Shown here one piece after another: positions 1 through 35,632 of a DNA stretch of 36,601 nt. Source of the DNA: a virus; UHGV virus genome UHGV-2204638. One strand, written 5' to 3'. The position numbers and the translations under genes were made by a program. Each line of letters opens with the position of its first letter. Position 1 is the stretch's first letter. Under the pieces are notes generated by a model. It worked only from the letters and a program-made list of their open reading frames with translations. It was not told the origin of the DNA and ran no database searches.

Positions 1-115
1 AAGGAAAAGATTAAAATATATACAGACACTTCTAAATTAATTTATGATTTATTCGGGGTTAAATCGGAGAAATAATATGTGAAGTTCTTCGATGGTATGG
101 AAGGCATTACATAAA

Positions 116-146
116 AGAACCCAATGCTTATTGGGTTCTTTTTTTC
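116..146 (+). terminator. Putative rho-independent terminator
   Basis: Hairpin agaacccaat-gctt-attgggttct followed by a run of seven T. Confidence 0.4.
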
Positions 147-685
147 TCTATCAGTGCTATTAGCAGGGAGAGATATCACCGGAGTTTAATGTGTGATTTT
201 TATTTATCGTCGAACCTGGATTGTTTATCATTGGCCTTAACAAAGCTAACGGCTAATAAGATTATTTCCATCACTTCGTGAGAGCTTCATGCCTTGAGAG
301 GATCTCAATTTTCTTTTGCAATGAGACAGGCGCTTCCTGTTGTTATGGTATAGTACCCCGTTATTGAGCCTCCTGAACAGTGATGCTGAATAACATAACC
401 CCATGATATATCGATAAAATAATCTCTACATTTGAAAATGCACGGTAATTCTGAAATGCAAAAAATCAACCAAACCAGCGCAATGCCTGAAAAAACTGAC
501 GTTCACTGGAGTGGTCGGTTTAGCGTTGCACCAATGCTCGATAGGATGTACCGTTGTTGAAAAACAAGTAGTTATACACTCTGTGGGAGCCTATTGGGAA
601 CCCGGCGTTTTCATTTCAAGGTGTAATCCATACGCGGCTTAAGAATGAGATATAATGCGACTTTTAGTGTTCCGCTTGAGAGGCC

Positions 686-1222
686 ATGATGCTTACCCTG
701 GACGAGATAGGTCAATCAGTACGTAACAATATCCAGTTGATTATTGATCATGTCGGCTTACCTCTTGCTGTTGGTCCGCTCAGTGATGATGATTACAAGA
801 TTCTGTGTGGTGGCTATGGTGAGCTTGAATGGGACTATGCGTTAAGCACCTATGGCAACTCCAGAGAAAAGTATGAGTTCTGCATAAAACTTGTTCAGCA
901 AGGTCGGGTTCAGGGAATACCATCAGGAGCAGCAATTTGTGTTTATGGGGTTGAAGAAAACATCTTTCGTATCCATATGATCGAAAGGTTTTCTAGAGAA
1001 GATGAATCTCACCCATTGAAAGGGCGCATGGTTTTACTCACTCTTATGAGTGCTTTTATATTTTGTAAAGCTGTTGAATGTAAAGTTGTCCACATTGTAG
1101 AGCCAGTACCAGAACTGGTGCAGTATTACGAGTCTTTTGGTTTCCGCATGGAACAGTGCGGTTATGTGATGTCTGCAGTCATTGATGAGCTGCAGGATAT
1201 CTTTCTTAAATTTGCTCAGTAG
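686..1222 (+). CDS. Hypothetical cargo protein, possibly GNAT-fold acetyltransferase-like
   Basis: 178-aa ORF in an AT-rich block with gagagg RBS and a TATAAT-like box about 30 nt upstream. The C-terminal VHIVEPVPELVQYYESFGF stretch resembles the GNAT beta4-alpha3 motif; this is from memory and weak. Confidence 0.45.
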   Translation: MMLTLDEIGQSVRNNIQLIIDHVGLPLAVGPLSDDDYKILCGGYGELEWDYALSTYGNSREKYEFCIKLVQQGRVQGIPSGAAICVYGVEENIFRIHMIERFSREDESHPLKGRMVLLTLMSAFIFCKAVECKVVHIVEPVPELVQYYESFGFRMEQCGYVMSAVIDELQDIFLKFAQ

Positions 1223-1418
1223 GTATAGACGAGAAGGGTCTACAAATTGTAGGATACCCGTCCAGATTACCTTAAAGGTACATCTATGGCAGTCGTTTTG
1301 TGCTTAAACTACTAAGAAACGATGTCACCAATCGACATGATCGATTGGCATAAGTTAGCGAAACAAGCTAGCTTTAAAGAGAGGGTTAGAGACGCCTTTA
1401 CTGTCTCGGGAGTTTTCT

Positions 1419-1592
1419 ATGAAAGATCAAAAAGCAACCAAGCCACAGGTTAAGTTCGACACAATGAAAGCATTCGCAGGTATGGGTGCTGCTGTTGAAG
1501 TTCTGATGAAGGCTGCTCCTAATGCGTTCACTCACGCTACTGTCTCTGGTAAAGAGCAGCAGGGTAAGCTTCGTCGTCGCAAAGCAGCATGA
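1419..1592 (+). CDS. Small hypothetical protein (57 aa)
   Basis: ORF MKDQKATKPQVKFDTMKAF... read directly from sequence, below the ORF-track cutoff. A terminator follows immediately. Confidence 0.35.
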   Translation: MKDQKATKPQVKFDTMKAFAGMGAAVEVLMKAAPNAFTHATVSGKEQQGKLRRRKAA

Positions 1593-1610
1593 TCATAGCT
1601 GGTGCTTTTT

Positions 1611-1640
1611 GAAAACCCGCCTTCAGGCGGGTTTTTTCTT
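1611..1640. terminator. Bidirectional rho-independent terminator
   Basis: gaaaacccgcc-ttca-ggcgggttttttc with A-tract upstream and T-tract downstream, sitting between the convergent genes ending at 1592 (+) and 1640 (-). Confidence 0.6.
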
Positions 1641-1921
1641 TAGTGATGTTCTTTGCCCTTCTGTTTGCCTGTTCTGACCTGTTCCCACTCGATACGTCCT
1701 TCTTCTCGTCTTTTGTCTATGTATTCCGCAAGATCCTGAATATTGATGCAACGTTTTGCTTTTTGTGATGTGCCGATGCGATATGTTGGAACGGGCAACT
1801 TACAAGCGTTTGCTTTTGCTTCTGCCGTGGCTGGACTCATGCCAAAGTACTTCTGGCTAACTGCTGAGAGTTCAATGTTAGGGGTATTGAATTCAGCCAT
1901 CAGTAAAAACAAGGTGTTCAT
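1640..1921 (-). CDS. PrtN/AlpA-type excisionase-like DNA-binding protein
   Basis: N-terminus MNTLFLLMAEF... is typical of PrtN-family excisionase-like prophage proteins (from memory). Start chosen at the ATG at 1921, which has GGAG 8 nt upstream; the track ORF extends to 1948 with a GTG. Confidence 0.6.
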   Translation of the reverse strand: MNTLFLLMAEFNTPNIELSAVSQKYFGMSPATAEAKANACKLPVPTYRIGTSQKAKRCINIQDLAEYIDKRREEGRIEWEQVRTGKQKGKEHH

Positions 1922-1957
1922 AATTTTCTCCATCAAAACCGGCTGCACCCGGGAAAA

Positions 1958-2530
1958 TCATAATTCTGTGCTGGTGGCAGGAATTAGTTTCTGCCAGATA
2001 GCGGAAACATATTTTGCCTGATGACGGGCATCAGCCAGGGCGTTGTGCCGTTCGCCATCGAAAGGCATGTCCATTTTTGGGTCGAATCCGATGGAACGCC
2101 CAAGCGTAATGATCGTGCGTACATCGTGGTCATTCCAGTACGCCCACGGGCAGATTTGTCCTGCTCGCTCGTAAGCTCCACGTAAAATTACGTTGTCGAA
2201 GGTGGCCCCGTTACCCCAGACTTTTAAATATTTTGTATTGTCTGCATGCTGATTAATGAAATGGCTCAGTTCAGAGAGTGCATCGCTGATCGACAAAGTA
2301 TCATCAATACAGATTGCAGCTCGTGCTTCAGAGCTCTGTTTCAACCACCACAGGATGGTATCGCCGTCAGGTGTAGCTCCTTGCTCCATAGCACTTTCCA
2401 GGCTAACAACCGTATAGAATTCTTGTTCGATGTCTCCGGTTTCTGGAGTGAAGAACACCGCGCCAATGGAAACGATCGGTGCATCCTTATTTTTCCCCAT
2501 CGTCTCAAGGTCGATCATTAAGTTATTCAT
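1958..2530 (-). CDS. DEDD-type 3'-5' exonuclease
   Basis: 190 aa; the MIDLETMG N-terminal motif and later acidic and H-x-A-x-x-D motifs fit DnaQ-like exonuclease motifs I-III. Confidence 0.6.
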   Translation of the reverse strand: MNNLMIDLETMGKNKDAPIVSIGAVFFTPETGDIEQEFYTVVSLESAMEQGATPDGDTILWWLKQSSEARAAICIDDTLSISDALSELSHFINQHADNTKYLKVWGNGATFDNVILRGAYERAGQICPWAYWNDHDVRTIITLGRSIGFDPKMDMPFDGERHNALADARHQAKYVSAIWQKLIPATSTEL

Positions 2531-3231
2531 TACTTCACCTCCTGCGGCGGTTCCGGTAGCGGCATCCAGTGAGTTGCTTGCTCAATACCATTACCCGGCT
2601 TAATCGTTGCATCTCCGCGCCGAAAGGTGCTTCCGGTATAGCGTGCGGAGCATATTAGCGGTTCAACCAGAGAGCTATCGAAATTCACTGAAATAAGCAC
2701 GTTCTGATTCTTTTCCGGCATTCGATCACTACAGCTTATCCAACCATCCGGAGTTACCGGAGAGTTGCCACCGTGAATATTTTCCGGAATATTTTGTTGT
2801 GCGTTTTGTGGTTGTTCGGATTTACCCTGAAGCATAGCGGCACGGCAGGCGTTCCAGCCTCTCACCTCTGCAATAGCGGCAAAAGCATCAACCGCGTACA
2901 TGCTAAGAGGATTAGGCATTGGTTTTTCTTCCGGTACTACTGGCACTGGAGGGGCGGCATAAAACTTCGTCCCCAGCGGCAACAACTTCATCGCTTTTTC
3001 TCCCTTAATGATGCGATAAGTTGATTTCCCGCCAAGGTCTACCGTTCCATCCATAACAAGGCCGAGTCGCTTCTCTGAAACCTCACCAATAGGCTCTGCT
3101 TCCAGCGATGCCAGAGCAATTCGTGCCAGTTCTTCCGCTTCTTCTGCTGGCAGTACAACGTTGCTACCAGGTCCGTATGTTTCGCGCCACTGCTTGATTG
3201 TCAGCAGTCGCTCTTTGGTAATAGTGATCAT
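2530..3231 (-). CDS. Phage protein with DUF551-like C-terminus
   Basis: 233 aa; start overlaps the stop of the downstream gene; C-terminal HWMPLPEPP motif. Confidence 0.5.
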   Translation of the reverse strand: MITITKERLLTIKQWRETYGPGSNVVLPAEEAEELARIALASLEAEPIGEVSEKRLGLVMDGTVDLGGKSTYRIIKGEKAMKLLPLGTKFYAAPPVPVVPEEKPMPNPLSMYAVDAFAAIAEVRGWNACRAAMLQGKSEQPQNAQQNIPENIHGGNSPVTPDGWISCSDRMPEKNQNVLISVNFDSSLVEPLICSARYTGSTFRRGDATIKPGNGIEQATHWMPLPEPPQEVK

Positions 3232-3307
3232 GCCGCGTTTCCTTCTTTCTTATTAACAATTACACCGTCATATATTTCATTAAGGTGCCCTCTCAACTCC
3301 ATGCGCC

Positions 3308-3742
3308 TTAATGCAGATAACATGTAATCGCATTCAACCTGCTTATTTCCAGTAAATGGCTTATCGTCAGGATTACCCCAACAGCAATTACCCTTGGGCA
3401 CCCATGCACTTTCCGTACTCTTCCGTTAACAACGTGAAGTAATCCCCAGCCAGGTGGTAAATCCTCAATTGAAATAATTCCCGGCTCACTAATAAAGAAT
3501 CGCCAGTCGCCCATTCCAAGAGACGGATTTTTACGAAAACGCTTTTTTCTATCTGCCAACAAGTCAGCACGAGAACATTTCGCCTCTATCAGGCATGATG
3601 CTGAATTTCTGAATCCCATAGCATCTGGCTGTTCTCCGGTACTGGTTACAGCTATAAAGCGGTCATGAAAACAAACCTTGAACCCGTTGCGCTTAAGGAA
3701 CTTGTACGCAATCTGACAGAGTTCGCGGTGTGTTAACGCCAT
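3308..3742 (-). CDS. PD-(D/E)XK nuclease-like protein, possibly frameshifted at the 3' end
   Basis: QPDAMGF...CLIEAK matches a PD...(D/E)xK signature. The last ~45 aa look non-protein-like and an alternative frame (3388..3570) is open. Confidence 0.4.
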   Translation of the reverse strand: MALTHRELCQIAYKFLKRNGFKVCFHDRFIAVTSTGEQPDAMGFRNSASCLIEAKCSRADLLADRKKRFRKNPSLGMGDWRFFISEPGIISIEDLPPGWGLLHVVNGRVRKVHGCPRVIAVGVILTISHLLEISRLNAITCYLH

Positions 3743-3743
3743 A

Positions 3744-4136
3744 TCACTCTCCTTTGATGCGAATGCCAGCGGCGCGGATTGCAGCGATGACCTCAGAAAC
3801 TTTGTATGCCATTACCGTTTGGTAATCCTCGTGAAAATCTGTTCGATGAAGCATGCTGCTAAGTTCTGGGAGCGATATTTCCCGCGCTTCCAGTTCTGCA
3901 ATGCGCTTCTCTGCGGCTTCCAGCGCATTTACCAGATCATCAACGATTCCAGCAGATTGGCGTGCGTAATCTGTAATTGCCAGCTCGCATTCAATTTCAG
4001 TTCCGTTTTCGTTTGTGTGGCAAATAGCAAAGTAATCGGAGTCGATTTCGTTATCAGCCAAACGCCTCAGCGTGTCGGCAACCAGCACTCCGTTTTCAAT
4101 CAGCATCTCTGTTGCGCGTTTGTTGATGTTGCTCAT
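3744..4136 (-). CDS. Hypothetical phage early protein
   Basis: 130-aa ORF in a chain of overlapping stop/start codons. Confidence 0.45.
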   Translation of the reverse strand: MSNINKRATEMLIENGVLVADTLRRLADNEIDSDYFAICHTNENGTEIECELAITDYARQSAGIVDDLVNALEAAEKRIAELEAREISLPELSSMLHRTDFHEDYQTVMAYKVSEVIAAIRAAGIRIKGE

Positions 4137-4891
4137 TGGGCGGCCTCCTGGCGGTCTATGCGTTCAATTTCGGCCAGAATAAGTGCGCCAGCTTTCACAA
4201 GGTCACGACGCGGCCCAGATTGCTTCCACCAATCAGGAGCCCACGGCCAATGCGCTGGCGTTGAGAGGCCTTGATTGTGTGCGTTAATCGCATAGCAAGC
4301 TGCAGCATCTGCCAGCTCACTGTTTTGATAGGCGTCGTCATGCTCAGACGTCCAGCCCTCAACGGCTTTCTGCCGCTGGCGCTCTGCTATCACATCTAGA
4401 ATTGCAGGATTGAACGTCCGCGCCTCCAGTTCTGCTATTTGATTCTCTGCTGCGTAGAGTTTGCGCTTCAGTTCTACGTTTTCCTCAGAAAGAGATACCG
4501 CTGCCTCCCAATTAACGATCCCCTCATGGCAGGCCTCCTGATATGCCGTCAGCACAACATCAAACAGATTGCCATCCTGTAGCAGCTTAGCCAGTTCAGG
4601 CTTCCAGGCTACGCAGTCATCATCAGGGTCCTGCATGTTGTAGACGTAAGTATCAAAGGCACCCATCAAGCGCCCGAATCCACCTTTGTCGTCTACCAGC
4701 ACTTGCCAGGCACGGAGAAGAAACAGTTTTTGATTACGATCTAAATCCGTCCGGGATAGTTCATCGGCGATAATGCTGATTTCACTACCGTTCCAGCGAG
4801 CGTCATTCCGTTGTGCCGCATGAAACAACTTCCAGAAATACTCGGTTTCTTCTTGGTCCGGGCGGCATTGCTTCAGTGTATGGACTGTCAT
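4133..4891 (-). CDS. Hypothetical phage early protein (Ea22/DUF550-like C-terminus)
   Basis: 252 aa; C-terminal HWPWAPDWWK...AGALILAEIERIDR resembles a conserved prophage C-terminal domain (from memory). Confidence 0.45.
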   Translation of the reverse strand: MTVHTLKQCRPDQEETEYFWKLFHAAQRNDARWNGSEISIIADELSRTDLDRNQKLFLLRAWQVLVDDKGGFGRLMGAFDTYVYNMQDPDDDCVAWKPELAKLLQDGNLFDVVLTAYQEACHEGIVNWEAAVSLSEENVELKRKLYAAENQIAELEARTFNPAILDVIAERQRQKAVEGWTSEHDDAYQNSELADAAACYAINAHNQGLSTPAHWPWAPDWWKQSGPRRDLVKAGALILAEIERIDRQEAAQ

Positions 4892-5205
4892 GCTGCACCG
4901 CCTTCAACGTTACGTAACCAGATGCATACCGCGCCATCTTCGGTGTTGTGAATTGAACCGACAAACCAACCTTCACCGGCTGGCGATTCTGGCTGCCAGG
5001 CTGAAATATCGTAACCATCAACTTCAGGATCGATGTCTTCTTCATCCCGGTAAACTACCGTCCATTCGAGGCCGTTTTTATCCAGCCAGGCGTTGAACTC
5101 ATCAGGTGAGATAAATTCACGACCATCGCAAAATTGCTCATAGACGGGGTGAGTCCAGTAGCCGTATTGGTCGCGTTCTACTGGTAATGCCGTAAATTTG
5201 CTCAT
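4888..5205 (-). CDS. Hypothetical phage early protein
   Basis: 105 aa, overlapping-stop operon member. Confidence 0.45.
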   Translation of the reverse strand: MSKFTALPVERDQYGYWTHPVYEQFCDGREFISPDEFNAWLDKNGLEWTVVYRDEEDIDPEVDGYDISAWQPESPAGEGWFVGSIHNTEDGAVCIWLRNVEGGAA

Positions 5206-5456
5206 TGGGCTGCTCCTTTGCGGACGTTTCGCAGAAGCTGGTTAAATATCAGCGTTAAGTTATTGCTGCATCCAAACGGCAGATCATTGACGCGGTATGT
5301 CGGTATCCCACCGCGTGCGCCAGACTTAACAATTCTCCCTGTTGCATAAAGCTGAGATAGTGCGCTGGCTACGGCTGGCGTCTTTTTACCCATCGCCCTT
5401 GCGATTTCACCGCTGGTGGCGTTCGGGTGGCCCTGGAGATATTCAAATACGGTCAT
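5202..5456 (-). CDS. Small winged-helix DNA-binding protein
   Basis: 84 aa; TSGEIARAMGKKTPAVASALSQLYATGRIVK looks like a wHTH. Confidence 0.45.
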   Translation of the reverse strand: MTVFEYLQGHPNATSGEIARAMGKKTPAVASALSQLYATGRIVKSGARGGIPTYRVNDLPFGCSNNLTLIFNQLLRNVRKGAAQ

Positions 5457-5620
5457 TGCGTTTTACCTTTACGTTCCTGTTCCAGTTGCGCCAATGATTC
5501 GGTTAATGCTGCGAACGTAGCTTCAAGCCTGGTAGCGACTTCGCGCATAAGCGATGCATGCTTTGGTGGCAATTCAGCCACGGAGGCAAACGCCTCCGCC
5601 ACGAGTTCTTTTACCTTCAT
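5453..5620 (-). CDS. Small hypothetical protein (55 aa)
   Basis: ORF MKVKELVAEAFASV... read from sequence, below the track cutoff. Its start and stop overlap the neighbouring genes in ATGA fashion at both ends. Confidence 0.4.
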   Translation of the reverse strand: MKVKELVAEAFASVAELPPKHASLMREVATRLEATFAALTESLAQLEQERKGKTQ

Positions 5621-6156
5621 GCGGCGCATTGACGCTGCTCCATCAACTCATTAAAGCGATTTATGAACATGCCGTATGACTGGCCTGGACGAACTGGATT
5701 GATGATGAATAGGTCCGTCGGGACAACGCCATCGAGGCATGGCCACACGGAACCTTCGTCAATCTCAAAATCGCGGCGTTCGCTGGCGAGCATCACCAGA
5801 TCGGCATATTTCACTGTTGGGTGTTGCTCCGTCGGTAGGCCAAATTTCTGGCGAATAGCAGCGTCTACGCGAGCTTCGATCACCTGGTAATCCGGTAACA
5901 GGCGCTTAAGCGGTGAGGGAATATCTTGCAGGTAGGCTTCGGCGGCATCATGAAGCAGTGCTTCTAAGGCAAACTCCTGCGGAACGAGATGGCTGGTTAA
6001 AACGCTATGCTGGCCGACGCTGTAAAACTCAGGAAGATGCCCTGCAAAGCGGCAGATATGAGACAACGCGGTAGCAATATCCTCGATCACGATATCGTCC
6101 TGTTGGATATCGAGGTAATTAAAATGTTTGCCGGATAATGTCTGAATGTAGCTCAT
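5617..6156 (-). CDS. HD-domain phosphohydrolase
   Basis: ALLHDAAEAY contains the HD motif. Start chosen at the ATG at 6156 with GGAG upstream. Confidence 0.6.
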   Translation of the reverse strand: MSYIQTLSGKHFNYLDIQQDDIVIEDIATALSHICRFAGHLPEFYSVGQHSVLTSHLVPQEFALEALLHDAAEAYLQDIPSPLKRLLPDYQVIEARVDAAIRQKFGLPTEQHPTVKYADLVMLASERRDFEIDEGSVWPCLDGVVPTDLFIINPVRPGQSYGMFINRFNELMEQRQCAA

Positions 6157-6264
6157 GGTTTTCTCCATATTGGCGCGCTGCACCGCGCCATTAAATTAAT
6201 GAATTGCTGAATTTAGCGTGCAGCAACCCAACCCATGCTTATGGGGGTAATTGTTGCCTGGTGT

Positions 6265-7182
6265 TTATCGCTTGGCTTCGCCGCCGAGAGAGGTTGTTAA
6301 TCCGTTAATGAGAGAGATAAGCTCGCCGGTCATCAGAACAAAGTCAGCGTCGAACCTCTGAGCCGCATCCTCACGGTCGATATCGTCGTTTTGTTCTGTA
6401 ATCTCATTAGAGAACTTAAGGCGTTTGATGCTGCCGTCATCGCAAAGAACGAACTGAATGCGCTGTTGCCAGTCGATAGACAGCTTTGTAACTACTTTGC
6501 CAGCTTCCAGATGCACATGAATTTCGTCACTGACCAGAGTCTGTTTTTTAAAGCGTCCAATACCACCATCTTCAAGAATAGCTTTCAGTTCGGCTTCATC
6601 ACCCAGGCCAAAGCCAGCAGGCGCACTACCGGAACGAACCCATTCGGTCATAGTTAGTTCGATCGGCGTTTCCATAGTCAGCGGTACCACCGGGAGAGAA
6701 CCGAGAGTTTTACGAAGCAGGGCCAGTGAGTCTTCGGCACGTTTAGCGCTGGCTGCATCAACCATGATCAGACCGTCGGTGACGTTGATCCACAAACTAA
6801 CAGTCGAGTTTTTGGAGAACGCCCGAGGAAGCAGGGAGTGCAACACTTCATCACGCAGCGAATCTTTCTCAGTTTTTTTGAGGCGACGCCCCTGATCGGA
6901 TTCCAGACGCGACACACGCTTGCGCAGTTCTTCAGCAATGACAGGAGATGGCAGTATTTTTTCTTCCCGGCGAATAACCAACAACACTTGATTATTGACA
7001 GTGTGATGCAAGCGATCTGACAGCTGACCAAGTGGTGATACCCAACCGGTTTTTGCCATATCCTGGCTACCGCATGGAGTGAAGCGAAATAGTTCAAGCT
7101 GCTGTTCCAGCTCTTCCTGGTTGATGGTGAAATCGCGATTAATGCGATACACCAACATATTTTTGAAAAACGGATTGTTCAT
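6265..7182 (-). CDS. rdgC: Recombination-associated protein RdgC homolog
   Basis: 305 aa, collinear and strongly similar to E. coli RdgC as recalled ([42 protein letters not shown]). Confidence 0.9.
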
Positions 7183-7339
7183 TCTCGGTTCCTCAACGCC
7201 TCTGCACCGGCGCTAAAAAGTTAGTTTCTCCATACACAACAGAGAAGGGCACCTGCATTGGTCGGCGGCTTGCAGAGACCGCTTTCTTTTTGCCCGGGTG
7301 GATTGGGTTATGAGCCCGTCGCCCGGTGATGCCCTTTTC

Positions 7340-7401
7340 TGTTGTGCCCTGAAAAAGGCTGGCGGTTACCGGAAATACACGGGAAAACACCGGGCCGCCA
7401 G
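7340..7401 (-). terminator. Putative tL1-like intrinsic terminator after the first leftward gene
   Basis: On the minus strand a 7+4 bp GC-rich hairpin (ctggcgg..ccgg / ccgg..ccgccag, 7359..7401) is followed within 3 nt by a run of five U; it lies in the 270-bp untranslated gap before rdgC. Confidence 0.4.
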
Positions 7402-7494
7402 AACAGGGAGTTACTTGTTATTGCTTTAGCCTGCTTTTAACCACATCAGGCGCGGTGGTATCTTGGTGTTCTCACACAACCAAGAGGGATGTTT

Positions 7495-7692
7495 ATGGGC
7501 GCTTTTGATAACCAGGAAATTACGTTACCCGCATGCCCTAAGTGCGGCACTAAGACGAAGAAGAAAATCGCTTGGCTCAAGTCGAACAAAAGTTTCACTT
7601 GTCGATGTGGAGCTACTATCAATGTCAACAGCAGCCAGCTTACTTCCGAAATCAGGAAGGTTGAGGACAAGCTGAAGAAGCTCTTTAAATAG
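7495..7692 (+). CDS. Small zinc-ribbon protein (65 aa), antisense to the 3' part of the ClpX-zinc-finger gene
   Basis: AAGAGGG RBS 7 nt before the ATG at 7495; CPKCG...(15 aa)...CRCG four-cysteine motif; lysine-rich C-terminus; a plus-strand terminator follows. Confidence 0.4.
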   Translation: MGAFDNQEITLPACPKCGTKTKKKIAWLKSNKSFTCRCGATINVNSSQLTSEIRKVEDKLKKLFK

Positions 7693-7890
7693 TTTTTTAT
7701 CGACTGATATTATTTCGTTATCAGAGGTTGGTTTTTCAGCCTCTGATTTTTTAGTCAGGATCATTTTTTCTACACATGTGACTACGCATTCCGAACAGAT
7801 GGCAGGTTCGTCCTTACCACCTTTTGCGACGATCTTTATCGCTCCCAGTTCGGTTGCTCCGCAAAATGAGCATGTGAATAAATGATTCAT
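7525..7890 (-). CDS. ClpX-type zinc-finger protein, first gene of the leftward operon
   Basis: CSFCG...(16 aa)...ICSECV matches the ClpX N-terminal C4 zinc-finger pattern. ATG at 7890 has GAGG 7 nt upstream. The C-terminal half is low-complexity and overlaps the plus-strand ORF 7495..7692. Confidence 0.5.
   Translation of the reverse strand: MNHLFTCSFCGATELGAIKIVAKGGKDEPAICSECVVTCVEKMILTKKSEAEKPTSDNEIISVDKKLFKELLQLVLNLPDFGSKLAAVDIDSSSTSTSETFVRLEPSDFLLRLSAALRACG
7720..7752 (+). terminator. Rho-independent terminator, plus-strand specific
   Basis: 8-bp stem atcagagg/cctctgat with a 12-nt loop, then six T; the reverse complement has no U-run. Confidence 0.5.
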
Positions 7891-7994
7891 GTAAACCTCT
7901 ACCCCCAACCTAAGTTTTCTGTCAGCGAATCATCCGGTCATTCATACGCCACCGGCGGCTACTTCGTGGGCGTCCTGCCTGTTCGTTACTGCAA

Positions 7995-8050
7995 CATCTT
8001 TAAGTTGTAATCTAGTTGTTGTTTTGGTTGTTGTCAACAACTTTATGTGG
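7995..8050 (-). promoter_or_regulatory. Leftward early promoter (pL-like) with operator-like palindromes
   Basis: The minus strand reads TTGACA (plus 8032..8037), a 17-nt spacer, then TAGATT (plus 8009..8014). The palindrome GTTGTTG-T-CAACAAC and AAGTTGT repeats overlap the promoter. Confidence 0.4.
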
Positions 8051-8099
8051 TTTTGACGGATGTGAAATGAGGGCAAGGGTTATCAAAAAAGGAGGTTGT

Positions 8100-8204
8100 A
8101 TGGACGATGCGCTTTTAATTACACAAGGGACACTTTCCTTCCGTGATTGGAAACTCTCAAATCACGGGAGGAAGATTGAAAAGGCGGGTAATAATGGTAA
8201 CTAA
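8100..8204 (+). CDS. Candidate small ORF (34 aa) convergent on cI
   Basis: Strong AGGAGG RBS 5 nt before the ATG; contains an 8-bp hairpin ccgtgatt/aatcacgg (8133..8165). Speculative. Confidence 0.25.
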   Translation: MDDALLITQGTLSFRDWKLSNHGRKIEKAGNNGN

Positions 8205-8231
8205 ATTTCTGAAGGAAGGTTTTTTGATGCA

Positions 8232-8918
8232 TTACCAAGTGCGCGATGACCAGAATACTCTACCTATAACGTGAATTCTTGAACGCCTATCTTCGAAGGT
8301 GAGTATTTCATCTGGATACTCATCTTTATTGAAACTTCTTAGAATCAGACCACCGTCAGGTAAATTGATCAATATTTTAACTCTAAGTAATACGCCATCA
8401 CGTATGGCATAAAGATCCCCATCACGAATAGGAACCGTTTGGGAAACATCAACAGCAACAAAATCTCCATTGTTAAGTACAGGTAGTAAACTATTGCCCC
8501 AAATTTTTACGATCTTTGCATTGGAGACACATACACCAGCTTTTCTTAAATCAATCCTTCTTAGCGGGAACCAGTCTACAGTTGATTCAACTATTTCAGC
8601 CAAACATCCATTACCCGCTGATAACTCGACATCTAGGACTGGAATGTTTGCAAAAATGTCAGGATCTAATGCTGTACTTTCAGCCTCCTTTACAACAAGG
8701 TCTGGGAAAGACGCGTTATCCTCAATGCCCAATTGCAACCACTTTTGAGAAACCCCTAACACTTTAGCAATCTCTTTAATTTTCCGAGGCTGTTGAGTTT
8801 CTCCATTCTCGATTTTCGCTACGGATTGTTGTGAAAGCCCAATTTTTTCAGCTAGTTGCGCCTGACTCATTCCTGCTTTTTCTCTTTCGCTTTTTAGTCT
8901 TTCTGCCAATGTTTTCAC
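8232..8918 (-). CDS. cI: cI-type prophage repressor (HTH-XRE N-terminus, S24 LexA-like peptidase C-terminus)
   Basis: QAQLAEKIGLSQQSVAKIENG is an XRE HTH; the C-terminal domain has the autocleavage-type serine and lysine context. Uses a GTG start with GAGGGGG upstream; divergent from the cro-like gene. Confidence 0.9.
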   Translation of the reverse strand: MKTLAERLKSEREKAGMSQAQLAEKIGLSQQSVAKIENGETQQPRKIKEIAKVLGVSQKWLQLGIEDNASFPDLVVKEAESTALDPDIFANIPVLDVELSAGNGCLAEIVESTVDWFPLRRIDLRKAGVCVSNAKIVKIWGNSLLPVLNNGDFVAVDVSQTVPIRDGDLYAIRDGVLLRVKILINLPDGGLILRSFNKDEYPDEILTFEDRRSRIHVIGRVFWSSRTW

Positions 8919-8944
8919 AACATATCCCCCTCGTTTTTATTGAG

Positions 8945-9040
8945 GTTACAACTTTATGTTTTAGCTTTCCAACATCTAAAAGTTGTGATAAAAGTTGTTG
9001 TAGTTGTATAATCGAAGTTATCAACAACTTTACTACTTAC
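8945..9040. promoter_or_regulatory. OR-like operator cluster with pR-like promoter
   Basis: Repeated ACAACTTT / AAAGTTGT half-sites and AAGTTATCAACAACTT. TTGTGA (8983..8988), 18-nt spacer, TATAAT (9007..9012), then RBS and cro ATG at 9056. Confidence 0.5.
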
Positions 9041-9055
9041 AGATAGGAGAAAGCT

Positions 9056-9304
9056 ATGACACCTGAGCAATTAGCCTTATCAGAGGCAATCGCTCTGGCT
9101 GGTGGTCAATCAGAATTGGCTCGGAAGCTCACAGCCAGCAGTGGTCGTTTAGTAAAGCAACAACATGTCTGGAACTGGTTGAACAGAGAAAAGCGTCCCC
9201 CTGCAAAACTCTCGATATTTATTGAAATGACCACTGGCGTATCAAAAGAAAAATTACGTCCAGATATTTTTCAAAAGATTAAAGACTTATCAGATGGAAA
9301 GTAA
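9056..9304 (+). CDS. Cro-like HTH regulator (YdaS-type)
   Basis: 82 aa; position divergent from cI; LALSEAIALAGGQSELARKL HTH; AGGAGA RBS. Confidence 0.75.
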   Translation: MTPEQLALSEAIALAGGQSELARKLTASSGRLVKQQHVWNWLNREKRPPAKLSIFIEMTTGVSKEKLRPDIFQKIKDLSDGK

Positions 9305-9326
9305 CCACAGTTTTAAGGAGATAGCC

Positions 9327-9878
9327 GTGGGTAAGCATCACTGGAAAGTAGAAAAACAGCCTGAGTGGTACGTGAAAGCTGTCAGAAAAACTATCGCGGC
9401 GTTGCCGGGTGGTTACGCTGAAGCTGCTGACTGGCTGGATGTAACAGAGAACGCATTATTTAACCGCCTTCGTGCCGATGGCGATCAGATTTTCCCGCTG
9501 GGATTGGCAATGGTTTTGCAACGTGCTGGTGGAACTCACTTCATTGCTGACGCTGTGGCGCAGTCTGCAAATGGCGTCTTTGTGTCTCTTCCTGACGTCG
9601 AGGATGTGGACAACGCCGATATTAACAAGCGCCTGCTGGAAGTCATTGAACAGATTGGCAGTTATTCCAGACAGATTCGTTCGGCAATCGAAGACGGTGT
9701 GGTGGAACCGCATGAGAAGACAGCAATTAACGACGAGCTGTATCTCTCAATTTCGAAGCTGCAGGAGCATGCAGCACTGGTCTACAAAATCTTTTGCATT
9801 TCAGAAAGTAATGACGCCCGCGAGTGTGCAGCTCCGGGCGCCGTGGCGTGTCGTGACTGTGGAGAAACTAACGCATGA
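9327..9878 (+). CDS. YdaT-like / CII-family regulatory protein
   Basis: Position after cro; resembles Rac YdaT-type proteins (from memory). Start chosen at the GTG at 9327 with AAGGAG 7 nt upstream; the track ORF starts at the ATG at 9294 with no RBS. Confidence 0.6.
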
Positions 9879-10213
9879 ACAGTTTAACAACACACTACCG
9901 TCGCTCGCAACTGATTGCGCTTCCTGTACCGGGTGGAAAAGCGAAGGTGGAGTATTGCTATGCAGTGAATGTACCAGGTGACAGGGAAATTGTAACCCAC
10001 AGCTTTGCCGAGTGGGCTGTGGGTGATTTCAACCGGCAGAAGGAGACAGTCCTTTGCAACAAGTTAACCGCTGGTTCAAAGATCACTACTGAGTGCCCGT
10101 CAGAGTCATTCGTTGGGAGCCGGAAACACAACGTGTTATCTACCTCCGTGAAGGCTATGAGCATGAATGCTTCAGTCCGCTCGAACAGTTTCGTCGTAAA
10201 TTCAGGGAAATAG
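9875..10213 (+). CDS. Hypothetical protein, possible frame disruption
   Basis: 112-aa ORF; its last ~25 aa look non-protein-like while an overlapping frame (10093..10233) reads [35 protein letters not shown]. Confidence 0.3.
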
Positions 10214-15232: not shown

Positions 15233-15307
15233 TAATAAATTCAATCAAAGTAAATAATCATATTTTATTATAACCTCCTGATGATACCTGTTCATTGGGA
15301 GGTTATT

Positions 15308-15925
15308 ATGGATAAAAATGTAGAGCATGTATTAGTTGATGCAATCGAAAATAAGCAATCTTTAACAGTCGTTTACTTAGGAGGGAGCCAGCCCGGAACA
15401 TTAAGGAATATTTCTCCGATTAGTATAAATGGGGATAAATTGCGGGCAAGATGCCATAGTTCTGGAGCAGTAAAGGTTTTCAATCTTGGGAAAATACAGT
15501 TACCCAGTGACTCCTGCGCGGTATCTATGCACTATGGAGATTTAGAAGTTAAAGCTTATGAGACGATGCAGAGCGTAAATGACAACTTTCATGCCCTTTA
15601 TCCTGAAGGACGATGGGGTGTTGATTTTAATGAGCATCGCTTTGCTTTATTTGATTTTTTTAAAAACGGGAAACGAAAAAAAACGGCATTTATGGCAATT
15701 GAGTTCAGGGAAAGAGATGAAGAGAAAATAATAACAGGTGTAACAATTGATATTGGTATATCTGGAACAGTGATTTCTGAGAAGTCCCGAATCCCAAAAA
15801 GACGACCATGGGTAGTGGTTGGTCCCGAACACGGAGAATACAGTACTTATTCAACTTTGGACAAGGCTGCTACAGCGTTTTTTGAGAGGCTTTCGTTGAT
15901 AGCATCCGGCCTGGAAGATAATTGA
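15308..15925 (+). CDS. Unknown cargo (moron) protein, 205 aa, on an AT-rich island
   Basis: GGGAGG RBS 5 nt before the ATG at 15308; about 35% GC against ~52% in flanking phage genes; its own terminator lies downstream. The N-terminal region has a WYL/SH3-like beta-rich pattern; this is speculative. Confidence 0.6.
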   Translation: MDKNVEHVLVDAIENKQSLTVVYLGGSQPGTLRNISPISINGDKLRARCHSSGAVKVFNLGKIQLPSDSCAVSMHYGDLEVKAYETMQSVNDNFHALYPEGRWGVDFNEHRFALFDFFKNGKRKKTAFMAIEFRERDEEKIITGVTIDIGISGTVISEKSRIPKRRPWVVVGPEHGEYSTYSTLDKAATAFFERLSLIASGLEDN

Positions 15926-16054
15926 TTTTATGTTTGGTATTCAGAGTTCGCCGTGCTTAAGAAAGTCAAGATTCTAAAAATACTGAATGAGCTACTTGTG
16001 TTATAACAAAAATGCTATTAGTGTGTTAAGAGTGGTTACTTCGCCACACAACTT

Positions 16055-16080
16055 AAACCCGCCACTGAGCGGGTTTTTTG
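16055..16080 (+). terminator. Rho-independent terminator
   Basis: aaacccgc-cactga-gcgggtttttt. Confidence 0.6.
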
Positions 16081-16177
16081 TACCTGTAAACTTGGTGCAG
16101 TACAGTAAACACGCTGGTGGTCGTGAATACTGACTTTTTATCTTGCTGGATTTTTAGACAAGAGTTATTGGTATGTC

Positions 16178-16405
16178 ATGTTAACCAGAAGGGAAAAAGA
16201 CATGCTAAAACAGCAAGATATGACAGAAACCGCCGCCGCAGTCCTTCATTTCTTACCTGCTGACAAGTGGGTAACGCCACGCATGATGACGAGAACTACC
16301 GGAGTAAGCGAAGCCCGGTGCCAGTTAATACTGACTCAGTTAGTTCTGGCGGGTCTGGCGAAGGATAACGGCGGGTACGGGAATAAATTCAGACGCTGCC
16401 AGTAA
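16178..16405 (+). CDS. Small hypothetical protein, possible wHTH
   Basis: 75-aa ORF upstream of the methyltransferase. Confidence 0.35.
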   Translation: MLTRREKDMLKQQDMTETAAAVLHFLPADKWVTPRMMTRTTGVSEARCQLILTQLVLAGLAKDNGGYGNKFRRCQ

Positions 16406-16555
16406 TGGCGGTTTCCTGCTGTGAAAATGGGCGGCTGGTGGGTGTTGGTAGCACCTGCCAGCCATTCGCTCATGCTTACTGGTCACAAGCGAACCACGGC
16501 CCACTGCTTTAGCGCAAAAGCAGAGTGAGCCTACCAGAGTTACGCTTACTGATCC

Positions 16556-26818: not shown

Positions 26819-26989
26819 ATGTTTGTGAAACCTGTTAAAGGGCGGTCAGTACCTGACCCTGCCCGCGGCGACCTTTTGCCCGCCGAGGGGCGAAATGTTG
26901 ATGAGAACAACTACTGGCTGCGCCGTGAAGCAGCGGGTGATATCCGGCGCGTGAATAAAAAGGTGAACACCGATGACGATAAGCTTTAA
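26819..26989 (+). CDS. Small DUF2635-like protein preceding the sheath
   Basis: 56-aa ORF MFVKPVKGRSVPDPARGDLLPAEG...YWLRR read from sequence; such small genes precede sheath genes in Mu-like tail modules (from memory). Confidence 0.45.
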   Translation: MFVKPVKGRSVPDPARGDLLPAEGRNVDENNYWLRREAAGDIRRVNKKVNTDDDKL

Positions 26990-28469
26990 CACCATTCCGT
27001 CGAATACGCTGGTTCCGCTGTTTTATGCGGAAATGGATAACCAGGCGGCGAATACTGCACAGGACAGCGGGGCATCGTTGCTGATTGGTCACGCCAATAA
27101 CGGTGCAGAGATTGTTGCCAACAGTCTGGTGCTGATGCCGTCGGCAGACTATGCACGCCAGATTTGTGGTGCGGGAAGTCAGCTGGCGCGTATGGTCGAG
27201 GCTTATCGCCAGACCGACCCGTTTGGCGAGCTGTATGTGATTGCCGTTCCGGAAGCCACAGGCGCGGCGGCAACGGTTACGCTGACGGTGACCGGGGCGG
27301 CAACCGAAACCGGCACGGTGAATGTCTATGTTGGACGTACCCGCGTGCAGGCTCCGGTGACCAACGGCGATAACGTCACGACGATTGCCAGCAGTATCCA
27401 GGATGCCATCAATGCCGTTCCGGCCCTGCCGTTTACGGCTTCATCTTCGGCAGGCGTGGTCACACTGACCGCGCGTCATAAGGGGCTTTGCGGGAATGAA
27501 ATTCCTGTCAGCCTCAATTACTACGGCTTCGGTGGGGGCGAAGTGCTGCCAGCGGGCGTACAGATTGCCGTGGCGACGGGGACCGCCGGAACGGGCTCTC
27601 CTGTTCTCACCGGCGCGGTGGCTGCAATGGCGGATGAGCCGTTTGATTATATCGGCCTGCCGTTCAACGACACGGCCTCCGTTAACACGCTGGTGACCGA
27701 GATGAACGATACCAGCGGTCGCTGGAGCTATGCGCGTCAGCTGTATGGTCATGTGTATACGGCAAAGATCGGCACGTTGTCAGAACTGGTGACCGCAGGT
27801 GACCAGTTTAACCAGCAGCACATTACCCTGGCGGGATACGAAAAAGAGACCCAGACGCCTGCCGACGAGCTGGCGGCAAGCCGTACCGCCCGCGCAGCGG
27901 TGTTTATTCGCAACGATCCGGCACGTCCCACGCAGACCGGTGAGCTGGTGGGTATGCTGCCTGCGCCGAAGGGGAAACGGTTCACGATGACCGAACAACA
28001 GACCCTGCTGTCTCATGGCGTGGCAACGGCGTATGTCGAAAGCGGGGTGCTGCGCATTCAGCGTGATGTCACCACGTACAGGAAAAACGCTTACGGTGTT
28101 GCGGATAACAGCTACCTCGACAGCGAGACGCTGCATACCAGCGCGTATGTGCTGCGCAAACTGAAATCCGTCATTACCAGTAAGTACGGGCGTCACAAGC
28201 TTGCCAGCGACGGTACCCGCTTTGGTCCCGGTCAGGCGATTGTCACACCGGCGGTGATCAAAGGGGAACTGCTGGCAACCTACCGTCAGCTTGAGCGTGC
28301 GGGGATCGTGGAAAACTACGAACTGTTTAAGCAGTACCTGGTTGTGGAGCGTGATGCCAGCGATCCGAACCGCCTGAACACGCTGTTCCCGCCTGACTAT
28401 GTTAACCAGTTGCGTGTCTTTGCCGTGGTTAACCAGTTCCGTCTTCAGTATTCAGAGGAGTCTGCATAA
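26973..28469 (+). CDS. Tail sheath protein
   Basis: 498 aa; position and size. Confidence 0.85.
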   Translation: MTISFNTIPSNTLVPLFYAEMDNQAANTAQDSGASLLIGHANNGAEIVANSLVLMPSADYARQICGAGSQLARMVEAYRQTDPFGELYVIAVPEATGAAATVTLTVTGAATETGTVNVYVGRTRVQAPVTNGDNVTTIASSIQDAINAVPALPFTASSSAGVVTLTARHKGLCGNEIPVSLNYYGFGGGEVLPAGVQIAVATGTAGTGSPVLTGAVAAMADEPFDYIGLPFNDTASVNTLVTEMNDTSGRWSYARQLYGHVYTAKIGTLSELVTAGDQFNQQHITLAGYEKETQTPADELAASRTARAAVFIRNDPARPTQTGELVGMLPAPKGKRFTMTEQQTLLSHGVATAYVESGVLRIQRDVTTYRKNAYGVADNSYLDSETLHTSAYVLRKLKSVITSKYGRHKLASDGTRFGPGQAIVTPAVIKGELLATYRQLERAGIVENYELFKQYLVVERDASDPNRLNTLFPPDYVNQLRVFAVVNQFRLQYSEESA

Positions 28470-34162: not shown

Positions 34163-34587
34163 TGGAACTGTGGCTGACGGTGAACGGTAAACGCACCTGT
34201 GCCAGCGCACCGATGGATCCGCTGACCCGTGCCGTGGTGATTTCCCTGTTCACCTGGCGGCGGGCTGAACCTGATGACAATGCCGACGTCCCGATGGGAT
34301 GGTGGGGGGATACCTGGCCTGCGGTACAGAATGACCGTTACGGCTCCCGACTGTGGCTGCTTCAGCGCAGCAAACTGACCAATCAGCTGGTGCAGACGGT
34401 AAGGGGGTATATCCGCGAATGCCTGCAATGGATGATTGATGACGGCGTGGTGTCCCGTATTGATCTGGATATCCGCCGCACCGGGATTAATGAACTGGGT
34501 AACAGTATCACTCTCTGGCGTCGTGACGGACCGGTAATGATTTCTTTTGATGATCTGTGGAGTGCGATAACGCATGGCGGACAGTGA
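34159..34587 (+). CDS. GP46-family baseplate protein
   Basis: 142 aa; position. Confidence 0.55.
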   Translation: MMELWLTVNGKRTCASAPMDPLTRAVVISLFTWRRAEPDDNADVPMGWWGDTWPAVQNDRYGSRLWLLQRSKLTNQLVQTVRGYIRECLQWMIDDGVVSRIDLDIRRTGINELGNSITLWRRDGPVMISFDDLWSAITHGGQ

Positions 34588-35632
34588 ATTTCAGCGCCCG
34601 ACGCTGGCAGAAAATATCAGTATGCTCCGTAACGATTTATTCGCCAGGCTGGACGTCAGCGACACGCTCCGGCGCATGGATGAAGACGTGCGGGCAAAGG
34701 TGTATGCGGCGGCGCTGCATACGGTTTACGGTTACATCGATTATCTGGCAATGAACATGCTGCCTGACCTGTGCGATGAGTCCTGGCTGGCGCGACATGC
34801 TGAGATGAAACGGTGTCCGCGCAAGGGAGCCACGGCTGCCAGTGGGTATATGCGCTGGGAAGGTGTCAGCGATGGCCTGAAGGTGACCGCCGGGAGTGTT
34901 ATTCAGCGCGATGACCTGGTGCAGTACACGACAACTGACGATGCAACCAGCTCCGGTGGTGTCCTGCGCGTGCCGATCGCCTGCTCAAGTGCAGGTGCGG
35001 TCGGTAACGCTGACGACGGTACGGCATTAATCCTGGTCACGCCGGTGAATGGTCTGCCGTCTTCCGGTGTGGCTGACACCCTGACAGGCGGATTTGATAC
35101 TGAAGAGCTGGAAACGTGGCGCGCCCGCGTCATTGAGCGGTATTACTGGACGCCGCAGGGCGGGGCTGACGGGGACTATGTTGTCTGGGCTAAAGAAGTG
35201 CCCGGCATTACCCGCGCATGGACATACCGTCACTGGATGGGAACGGGAACTGTCGGTGTGATGATTGCCAGCAGTGACCTGATTAATCCCATTCCGGAAG
35301 AATCAACGGAAACGGCGGCAAGACAACATATCGAGCCACTGGCCCCGGTGGCAGGCTCTGATTTGTATGTGTTTAGGCCGGTGGCACATACGGTGGATTT
35401 TCATATCCGCGTGACGCCGGACACACCGGAAATACGGGCTGCCATCACCGCGGAGTTGCGTTCGTTCCTGCTGCGTGATGGTTATCCGCAGGGAGAACTG
35501 AAGGTATCGCGTATCAGTGAGGCGATTTCCGGTGCGAACGGGGAATACAGCCATCAGTTGCTTGCACCGACAGACAATATCTCCATTGCAAAAAATGAAC
35601 TGGCGGTTCTGGGGACGATTTCATGGACGTGA
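34574..35632 (+). CDS. Baseplate J-like protein (gp47-like)
   Basis: 352 aa; position. Confidence 0.65.

Follow-up and report, generated by a model that had tools for sequence, protein, structure and literature searches.

What role could be played by two small genes that lie at the extreme left of a prophage and face its early operon? The locus that raises this question belongs to the UHGV virus genome UHGV-2204638, of which one stretch of 36,601 nucleotides (hereafter the window) was analysed. An earlier note on this DNA, made from its letters alone, had pointed to two plus-strand open reading frames (ORFs) of 178 and 57 amino acids (aa) as an AT-rich cargo pair, the larger with a GNAT-like signature towards its C-terminus. 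Both ORFs exist, and together they mark out a self-contained, horizontally mobile accessory unit of temperate phages that is built as a moron. This cassette holds a gene for an acidic protein with a predicted GNAT acetyltransferase fold, a downstream gene for a small basic protein that is its obligate partner and, between the two, a spacer that is a conserved multi-hairpin RNA; it occurs at different positions in different phages, and its presence or absence is polymorphic among related prophages.

A moron between phage backbone genes

The limits of the unit can be read from the similarity between cassettes, for which median identity is 44% upstream of the pair, 66% across the GNAT-like gene, 50% in the spacer, 86.5% in the small ORF, 79% in the 3' untranslated region (3' UTR) with its terminator, and 34% further downstream. 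A −10-like box precedes the first gene (Table 1), and TAYAAT or TAAAAT stands at the same distance in all contexts, be it between attP and xis, between Q and the holin gene, or in a tail cluster; a convincing −35 element was not found for it, a two-hexamer scan gave it no score, and the promoter is a predicted one. At the other end, the terminator stands head-to-head with the excisionase gene, to which it is common, and is kept in every genomic context. It is this combination of an own −10-like box and an own terminator, with similarity collapsing beyond both, that gives the cassette its moron anatomy: a unit with its own signals between backbone genes, present, absent or replaced between close phages, and inserted at differing sites.

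The moron concept is reportedly owed to Hendrix and colleagues, with bor, lom and stx as its lambdoid examples. Like these, the cassette is an autonomous unit with a GC content below that of its surroundings, is present or absent in near-identical phages and is found at classic sites, including the Q-holin interval; unlike them, it consists of two proteins and a structured RNA rather than a single gene, and at this locus it could also be driven by a captured host promoter, that of dusA. The AT-richness stressed in the earlier note is real in the large ORF (41.9% GC) and the spacer (41.8%), but modest only, considering that the small ORF has 47.7%, the region 1640-10000 also 47.7%, and the whole window 51.9%.

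Table 1. Features of the cassette and its border, in window coordinates
Feature	Position	Strand	Remarks
dusA 5' remnant running into the attL crossover core	438..555	+	ATG at 438; crossover ~534-555
Exchangeable cargo segment (promoter region, GNAT-like gene and RNA spacer)	605..1405	+	left breakpoint ~604 (SKA5 attP alignment); right breakpoint ~1406-1408, at the Shine-Dalgarno sequence of the small ORF
TATAAT −10-like box	651..656	+	~33-40 nt upstream of the GNAT start; putative promoter element
Divergent acidic GNAT-fold protein	689..1222 (686..1222 from the first ATG)	+	177 aa (178 from 686)
Conserved structured RNA spacer	1223..1418	+	196 nt; alignment of 17 spacers and independent minimum free energy (MFE) folds
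Spacer hairpins	P1 1226-1242, P2 1264-1285, P3 1288-1327, P4 1328-1348, P5 1352-1374, P6 1389-1407	+	
Small basic partner protein	1419..1592	+	57 aa; isoelectric point (pI) 10.5; Shine-Dalgarno 1408-1412; C-terminus ...RRRKAA
Conserved 3' UTR (AGCUGGUGCUUUUUGA) and intrinsic terminator	1593..1641	.	stem 1611-1636 and U-run

A divergent acidic protein with a predicted GNAT fold

The large protein is identical (100%) to gp23 of phage mEp460, WP_000956557 and PHROG 4350, and the small one to mEp460 gp24 (again 100%), WP_000654815 and PHROG 2741; RefSeq labels both as hypothetical, and both PHROGs are listed as 'unknown function'. Considering the purifying selection seen when cassettes are compared across genera (ratio of nonsynonymous to synonymous divergence, dN/dS, 0.05-0.2 for both genes), neither is a chance ORF. 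The true start of the first gene is likely its second ATG, at 689: all homologues begin ML(T/S)L, a Shine-Dalgarno sequence (GAGAGG) lies at 678-683, and the mEp460 and RefSeq annotations both use this codon. The family comprises 51 clusters at 90% identity; a search of 1.84 billion proteins gave 95 representatives at E<1e-3, and it is mainly in Enterobacterales that the family is found.

No curated sequence model recognises the large protein, yet an acetyltransferase fold is predicted for it. The AlphaFold (AF2) model of the large protein, from a 38-sequence alignment, has a pLDDT (predicted local distance difference test score) of 92.8 and a pTM (predicted template-modelling score) of 0.89, and its core has the canonical GNAT order β1-α1-α2-β2-β3-β4-α3-β5-α4-β6. 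Foldseek returned 312 matches in the PDB at E<1e-3; the 50 matches listed are all GNAT acetyltransferases, with TM (template-modelling) scores of 0.5-0.6 and identities of 9-15%. The best structural neighbours are the protein N-terminal acetyltransferases NatD, Naa20 and RimI; SpeG structures are prominent among the matches, TacT3, AtaT and KacT are also among the neighbours, and a search of a viral fold library gave generic GNATs only. Judging from the model, we regard the protein as a genuine GNAT fold, nearest to the alpha-amine acetylases, but an outlier.

The C-terminal signature that had been noticed earlier is motif B, kept as YYESFGF with invariant Y148, G152 and F153, and the predicted fold extends the assignment to the whole protein. 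In hhalign, residues 144-157 align to RimI 111-124 (LYESLGF; Y148 with RimI Y115), and nothing aligned beyond motif B. The residue directly after β5 is E or D in all homologues. The motif A loop is an invariant H109-P-L-K-G113-R-M115, not Q/R-x-x-G-x-G/A, and keeps the central Gly alone. Neither the Pfam Acetyltransf_* models nor the NCBIfam models matched the large protein at E<=1, PDB searches with single sequences and profiles gave nothing informative for either protein, and none of the weak profile matches from the 1.84-billion-protein library matched a canonical GNAT Pfam domain; some homologues bear the UniRef name 'N-acetyltransferase domain'. A profile match to HIV gp41 constructs was rejected as a low-complexity artefact. 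Across the enzyme family the whole-protein pI is 4.3-4.9 and the net charge −8 to −18. Conservation is unusually high in the N-terminal region, on the acceptor side, which suggests one specific acceptor.

An obligate small basic partner

The 57-aa gene is the obligate partner of the GNAT-like gene. A homologue of it lies downstream, on the same strand and at a gap of 93-251 nt, in 101 of the 101 loci retrieved via the GNAT-like protein, and this linkage holds in at least four phage positions: between attP and xis (E. coli, mEp460 and Salmonella), between the Q antiterminator and holin genes (Atlantibacter, Enterobacter and phage Eeyore, in which the 53-aa ORF is unannotated), inside the tail gene cluster (Photorhabdus), and at a prophage border (Shewanella). 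Over the longest of these distances the two proteins have diverged together, with 34% identity for the Shewanella small protein versus ~40% for its GNAT-like neighbour. Remote GNAT-like homologues (profile E 1e-25 to 1e-11) also have an ORF of 50-81 aa just downstream and, in one remote branch, the two are fused: in the 246-aa protein P0090, residues 1-190 resemble the GNAT-like protein P0088 (E 1e-45), whilst residues 208-241 match the 81-aa ORF that follows P0088 (E 4e-8), with APKGEAAG in common. The hidden Markov model of the small protein did not detect the C-terminal extension of P0090, and hhalign of the 81-aa product with the 57-aa protein of the window was not significant; homology between the two is suggestive only (EV[LF]xxAAP). 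The earlier note had taken the downstream position of the small ORF to weaken a functional link, a view that has to be reversed, as no other part of the cassette is so tightly linked or so well conserved as this ORF.

The surroundings of the remote members vary. In some bacteria the P0090 fusion (loci L202-L204) is chromosomal, at a fixed position with nagE on one side and a TauE gene/glnS on the other; the unfused P0088 (L201) lies between PemK-type and CcdA-type toxin-antitoxin genes, beside an insertion sequence element. In L115 (3780-3835), a remote GNAT-like/partner pair is found near a tRNA 3'-end fragment, an attachment-site remnant in which ARAGORN found no complete tRNA, and a tyrosine integrase, a layout that repeats the order 'int <- att -> GNAT -> partner' with a different integrase family.

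The AF2 model of the small protein is a single helix (residues 15-37, pLDDT 63) with disordered Lys/Arg-rich tails, a predicted make-up typical of partners that fold on binding; no Pfam or NCBIfam domain was found in it, nor a ribbon-helix-helix (RHH) or DUF1778 domain. Partners across the family have a pI of 9.3-11.1 and a net charge of +2 to +9, complementary to the enzyme throughout; indeed, the sole acidic partner found is paired with a near-neutral enzyme. The most persistent feature of the partner is its C-terminal K-A-A, which is kept in remote homologues.

Conservation here extends beyond the protein. Synonymous divergence (pS) is 0.3-0.45 in the small ORF and saturated, at 0.7-0.9, in the GNAT gene, and the non-coding 3' UTR almost matches the small ORF (79% vs 86.5% identity); the low divergence of this 230-nt segment may reflect either an extra constraint at the RNA level or recombination between cassettes. 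Positions 1427-1436 and 1603-1612 (UCAAAAAGCA and UGCUUUUUGA) are perfectly complementary over 10 nt, linking codons 3-6 of the small ORF to the 3' UTR, in a pairing extendable to ~15 bp (dG ~-18 kcal/mol); in loci L089 and L016, CAA>CAG is accompanied by U>C within it. Taken alone, this pairing is at chance level for a 1.2-kb region, and in the MFE fold of the small mRNA the same stretch of 3' UTR pairs with an internal GAAAGCA instead.

A conserved multi-hairpin RNA between the two genes

The spacer, which had no place in the earlier account, is a conserved multi-hairpin RNA with covariation, as judged from comparison of its sequences. In a sequence-based alignment of 17 spacers, 88% of cells in four helices are paired, against 21-44% in controls with slid partner columns, and 21 cells are compensatory, against 1-8 in those controls; many of the changes, C-G to U-G and A-U to G-U, are compatible with the plus strand only. 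The same series of hairpins was recovered in independent MFE folds, the spacer of the window folds better than its shuffles (z-score -2.9), and P3 is retained as a hairpin despite quite different sequences between cassettes. UUGUAGGAU, at 1247-1255, is conserved and predicted to be single-stranded, and the last hairpin, P6, abuts the Shine-Dalgarno sequence of the small ORF.

A covariance model finds exactly one match in each Enterobacteriaceae cassette (E 1e-27 to 1e-40), loci outside the training set included, and a weak copy in Xenorhabdus; it has no match elsewhere in the window, nor in loci without the GNAT gene. The cassettes of Photorhabdus, Shewanella and Eeyore have shorter or different spacers. 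Rfam gave no match in 1223-1418 even at E<=5, and none in the whole window at gathering scores.

Other readings of the spacer were set aside. A 43-aa ORF at 1322..1453 was rejected as a gene on account of spacer indels between homologues. A type III toxin-antitoxin system was also rejected, since there are no tandem repeats in 500-1700; the spacer hairpins are all different. In E. coli K1, mEp460-like prophages are reported to encode a small RNA, sRNA-17 (PMC7719688); its sequence, as given in the supplement, is absent from the window.

Distribution, and an alternative allele in the same slot

How widespread is the cassette? It is complete in 357 of 5426 complete E. coli genomes (~6.6%), with carriers in the O157:H7, O111:H8, O145 and O55:H7 lineages, and it is also carried by many prophages of Salmonella, Enterobacter, Citrobacter, Cronobacter and Photorhabdus. 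Window positions 600-1640 are matched by 562 of the 5426 genomes, whereas 4841 match some part of 1-3000, presumably mostly the host flank, a difference which bears out the cargo status proposed at the outset.

A further ~205 of these genomes (~3.8%) hold only the segment from the Shine-Dalgarno sequence of the small ORF onward. Where such genomes were examined, genes for a Panacea-domain antitoxin (190 aa) and a putative toxin of 128/139 aa stand in for the GNAT gene and spacer (L009 1986-3187, L010 and L118-L120), in a slot equivalent to window 605-1405, and the same holds for phages Lys8385Vzw and SKA5. Such PanA-PanT (SocA-like) pairs, which are not in the window itself, thus take up, in sister prophages, exactly the place that the GNAT gene and spacer have here, with attP-derived sequence on one side and the small ORF on the other; they differ from the GNAT cassette in that the proteins are unrelated and the antitoxin comes first. 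The small ORF stands behind a Panacea pair only in an E. coli allele that is 99-100% identical (65 loci), and 14 loci with divergent pairs (70-86% identity) are without it, so that the orphan small gene is the footprint of one recent replacement. The outcome is an asymmetry of loss: the partner is without the enzyme in ~205 E. coli genomes, and the enzyme was never seen without the partner.

The slot on the dusA side is a cargo hotspot. The earlier note had suspected an integrase-proximal one; the hotspot stands, given the alternative allele, but the integrase is at the far prophage end, outside the window and, in the closest genome, 46 kb away. Other strains have further small insertions here: a CoiA-like gene follows the 57-aa gene in E. 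coli 13E0725 (L120 3320-4354), and one Salmonella genome (L107 5381-5848) has a gene with a helix-turn-helix and two transmembrane segments after the 57-aa gene, ahead of xis.

Integration into dusA

The cassette pair is prophage cargo inside a dusA-integrated element. Window positions 1 to ~540 are E. coli chromosome, with the end of a DUF2713 (yjbM-like) gene and its own terminator (113-142) at the left edge, and everything to the right of attL is prophage, the cassette beginning ~50 nt past that site. The dusA remnant translates as MHGNSEMQKINQTSAMPEKTDVHWSGRFSVAPMLD and is annotated as a partial tRNA-dihydrouridine synthase in E. coli strain 97.3; its frame is broken after ...APMLD, 34 native codons being followed by 7 phage-derived codons and a stop. 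Alignment with the attP regions of mEp460 and SKA5 shows host-type sequence left of ~534, which differs from the phage-borne dusA-like copy, and phage-identical sequence from ~534-555 rightwards. These results place the pair inside the prophage, as the earlier note had supposed, with attL at ~534-555.

The attachment core is present in a single copy in the window, which contains no integrase. Free mEp460 is arranged as dinI <- int <- [dusA-like 5' end / attP] -> gp23 -> gp24 | <- xis(PrtN) <- exo, and in both mEp460 and SKA5 the phage-borne dusA-like 5' end adjoins int. It follows from this order that integration leaves the integrase at the far end of the prophage, the cassette being adjacent to it only across attP. 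Indeed, in strain 97.3, the closest genome (99.3% identity over window 1-3000), the integrase lies beside an intact full-length dusA at the other prophage end, 46 kb from the cassette. Elements with dusA-specific integrases swap in their own dusA 5' end, and the native one stays behind as a remnant at the other border (Farrugia et al. 2015, PMC4482086). The present element shows the remnant (438..~540) and the crossover (534-555); the new dusA 5' end beside int is seen in mEp460 and SKA5, and the full-length dusA with its neighbouring integrase in strain 97.3.

Integration places the cargo behind the host dusA promoter, as the remnant still has its upstream region and is directed towards the cassette. 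The terminator scan gave sites at 113-142 and 1611-1636, each with a T-run, and none between 146 and 1611. The pair had been described as flanked by terminators, which is half meaningful: the right-hand one belongs to the cassette, but 113-142 is a host terminator outside the prophage, parted from the pair by the dusA promoter region and remnant. That the pair is transcribed against the early operon is confirmed, as it converges on the gene for a PrtN-type excisionase (1640..1948, minus strand), and an exonuclease and a DUF551 gene lie on the same minus strand in this early-left operon.

The prophage as a whole is mosaic, as 8232-36207 shows. A CI-type repressor and RdgC belong to its early-left arm, which is near-identical to that of the siphovirus mEp460, whilst its late region is of the contractile-tail type, with a sheath gene at 26973-28469 and Baseplate_J at 34574-35632; strain 97.3, the closest genome for the left arm, has lambda-like tail genes instead. 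Two further ORFs, 3308-3742 (minus strand, 144 aa) and 15281-15925 (plus strand, 214 aa), have no Pfam match, and the latter sits at the expected position of a Q-like antiterminator. Between this 214-aa ORF, which is downstream of a DUF968 gene, and an N6/N4 DNA methylase lies a gap of ~630 bp (15926-16555), in which no ORF reaches 80 aa and the cassette RNA model has no match; the equivalent slot carries the GNAT cassette in Enterobacter hormaechei prophages (L109-L112).

Discussion

Amongst known systems, the nearest to the cassette in its way of working may be a GNAT toxin that has its own dedicated neutraliser. As in the GNAT/RHH type II systems (TacAT, AtaRT, KacAT and ItaRT), a GNAT-fold enzyme of ~175 aa is tightly linked to a small, dedicated partner on mobile elements, and the slot of the cassette is interchangeable with another toxin-antitoxin pair. 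Yet on partner position, partner fold and sequence models it lacks what defines those systems: its partner is downstream, has 57 aa and is without an RHH/DUF1778 domain, 196 nt of structured RNA separate the genes, and its enzyme is acidic (pI 4.8), with an atypical motif A and no sequence-level match. The earlier note had found a canonical toxin-antitoxin arrangement unsupported, and the cassette is indeed not a canonical GNAT/RHH system with its antitoxin upstream. Compared with the N-alpha-acetyltransferases (RimI, NatD/Naa40, Naa20 and Ard1), the enzyme is only 10-13% identical, has extra N- and C-terminal helices and HPLKGRM in place of the pyrophosphate-binding loop, and is phage-borne with a dedicated mini-partner. 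It shares strong acidity with the polycation N-acetyltransferases SpeG and AAC(6'), as is expected of enzymes with polycationic acceptors; no partner protein is known for either, and the cassette has no resistance-gene context. AcrVA5 is a small phage GNAT anti-CRISPR that acetylates a protein Lys (on Cas12a). The cassette enzyme is likewise a small phage-encoded GNAT; unlike it, AcrVA5 is not known to have a partner, the predicted logic of expression differs, and there is no detectable similarity beyond the fold.

What, then, might the module do? The reading that we favour, and hold tentatively, is that of an acidic acetyltransferase restrained or directed by its small basic partner, in a toxin-antitoxin-like or abortive-infection-like module. 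The two proteins would bind each other, and the basic, largely disordered partner would cover the acidic acceptor surface of the enzyme in the role of pseudo-substrate, substrate or regulatory subunit. Acetyl transfer would thereby be restrained or directed, with a polycation as the target, at an alpha-amino group or the amino group of a Lys. Since acidic GNATs typically use polycationic acceptors, a basic protein or amine would be a likelier target than tRNA. The -KAA C-terminus may render the partner protease-labile, in which case the enzyme would be released once partner synthesis stops. In a lysogen, transcription may come from the −10-like box of the cassette and/or from the displaced dusA promoter, which could read through in the absence of an intervening terminator; the spacer RNA and the pairing of 3' UTR with coding sequence would probably set the partner:enzyme ratio, and the module as a whole would benefit the lysogen or the prophage. 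We could go further and speculate, although we consider this quite unlikely, on a three-component protein-RNA-protein module, with a GNAT enzyme held by a protease-labile pseudo-substrate and a dedicated RNA as sensor, decoy or substrate, and serving as an addiction or abortive-infection device in temperate phages of Enterobacterales, including prophages of enterohaemorrhagic E. coli (EHEC) O157:H7 and Salmonella.

Several points weigh against a restrained toxin. The loss asymmetry is the pattern that would be expected from a harmful enzyme, but a single replacement event lies behind it. Conservation is higher in the partner than in the enzyme (86.5% vs 66% nucleotide identity; dN 0.02-0.1 vs ~0.2), the reverse of the usual toxin/antitoxin pattern, which hints that the partner also contacts a conserved host component. 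The partner lacks the DNA-binding fold that all known GNAT antitoxins have, and in type II systems the ORFs are tightly coupled, not parted by a long structured spacer. TacT/AtaT-type toxins have a basic tRNA-binding surface, and an acidic enzyme is unlikely to bind tRNA as they do. Given the non-canonical motif A and the lack of any scoring Pfam acetyltransferase model, catalytic competence is not assured, and PADLOC has no matching model for the cassette. Lastly, the resemblance of -KAA to the ClpX-recognised C-termini of ssrA (-LAA) and MuA (-RRKKAI) is a lead only.

Could the pair then be harmless? A two-subunit enzyme, or an enzyme with its substrate, might serve lysogenic conversion without toxicity, the small protein being the acetyl acceptor or a targeting subunit and the acetylated product or holoenzyme altering host physiology or excluding superinfecting phage; we consider this possible, if doubtful. 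Co-occurrence, fusion and charge complementarity fit it equally well, NatD, Naa20 and RimI, the best structural neighbours of the enzyme, act together with partner subunits or on specific basic substrates, the small protein is rich in Lys and conserved above the enzyme, and the fusion is as stable between nagE and glnS as a housekeeping-type gene. Moreover, among the full-length matches listed from the 357 E. coli genomes, the GNAT gene is an intact coding sequence with no pseudogene flag. However, a plain enzyme/substrate pair would tolerate either loss, and here the enzyme is never alone whilst the partner survives alone; it is this asymmetry, together with the exchange for a toxin-antitoxin pair in the same slot and the remote member nested between PemK and CcdA genes, that leads us to prefer a toxin-antitoxin-like role over a non-toxic one. 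The anatomy speaks more directly to a canonical TacT/AtaT-like tRNA acetylase toxin with a conventional antitoxin encoded elsewhere, which it largely refutes and which we regard as very improbable: TacT3, AtaT and KacT are indeed structural neighbours, but at only 8-15% identity, with no upstream ORF (the exchangeable segment holds the GNAT-like gene alone), no RHH/DUF1778 protein nearby, no Pfam acetyltransferase match, and an acidic charge by whole-protein pI.

Perhaps the enzyme is instead aimed at host immunity, as a phage acetyltransferase that inactivates an immune protein, much as AcrVA5 does with Cas12a, and has the small protein as a helper. A GNAT fold within a phage accessory region would suit such counter-defence, as would the place of the cassette in late or Q-dependent transcription units of several phages; nevertheless, the −10-like box and terminator that the cassette brings along, the fact that it runs against the early operon and the host promoter upstream of it in the lysogen point to expression from the prophage rather than in early infection, fused and unfused relatives live outside prophages, no similarity to known anti-defence proteins was found, and the idea strikes us as improbable. 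Less probable still is that the genes are functionally independent and the region of the small ORF is mainly an RNA element, either a dual-function or 3'-UTR-type small RNA or a recombination 'linker'. This would account for the far higher conservation of the small ORF and 3' UTR, synonymous sites included, for a cargo-exchange breakpoint exactly at its Shine-Dalgarno sequence, for the complementarity of the 3' UTR to the ORF start, and for the persistence of an intact small ORF behind different cargo. On the other hand, its dN/dS shows that the protein itself is selected, its divergence keeps step with that of the GNAT-like gene as far as Shewanella, one branch has the two fused, and divergent Panacea pairs do without it, which they should not if it were a general cargo-flanking element.

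A search of the literature by accession, PHROG identifier and keywords found no study of these genes, and the three parts of the cassette are absent from Pfam, NCBIfam, PADLOC and Rfam. In the cassette we have a well-delimited, widespread and uncharacterised three-part module, small and easy to test, that is carried by about 1 in 15 complete E. coli genomes. Its structured spacer is a candidate new RNA motif, and its site illustrates how a phage that targets dusA places exchangeable cargo directly behind a displaced host promoter. Should the reading of an enzyme with its restrainer prove true, the cassette would represent a new architecture for acetyltransferase toxin systems and for the immunity that prophages encode.

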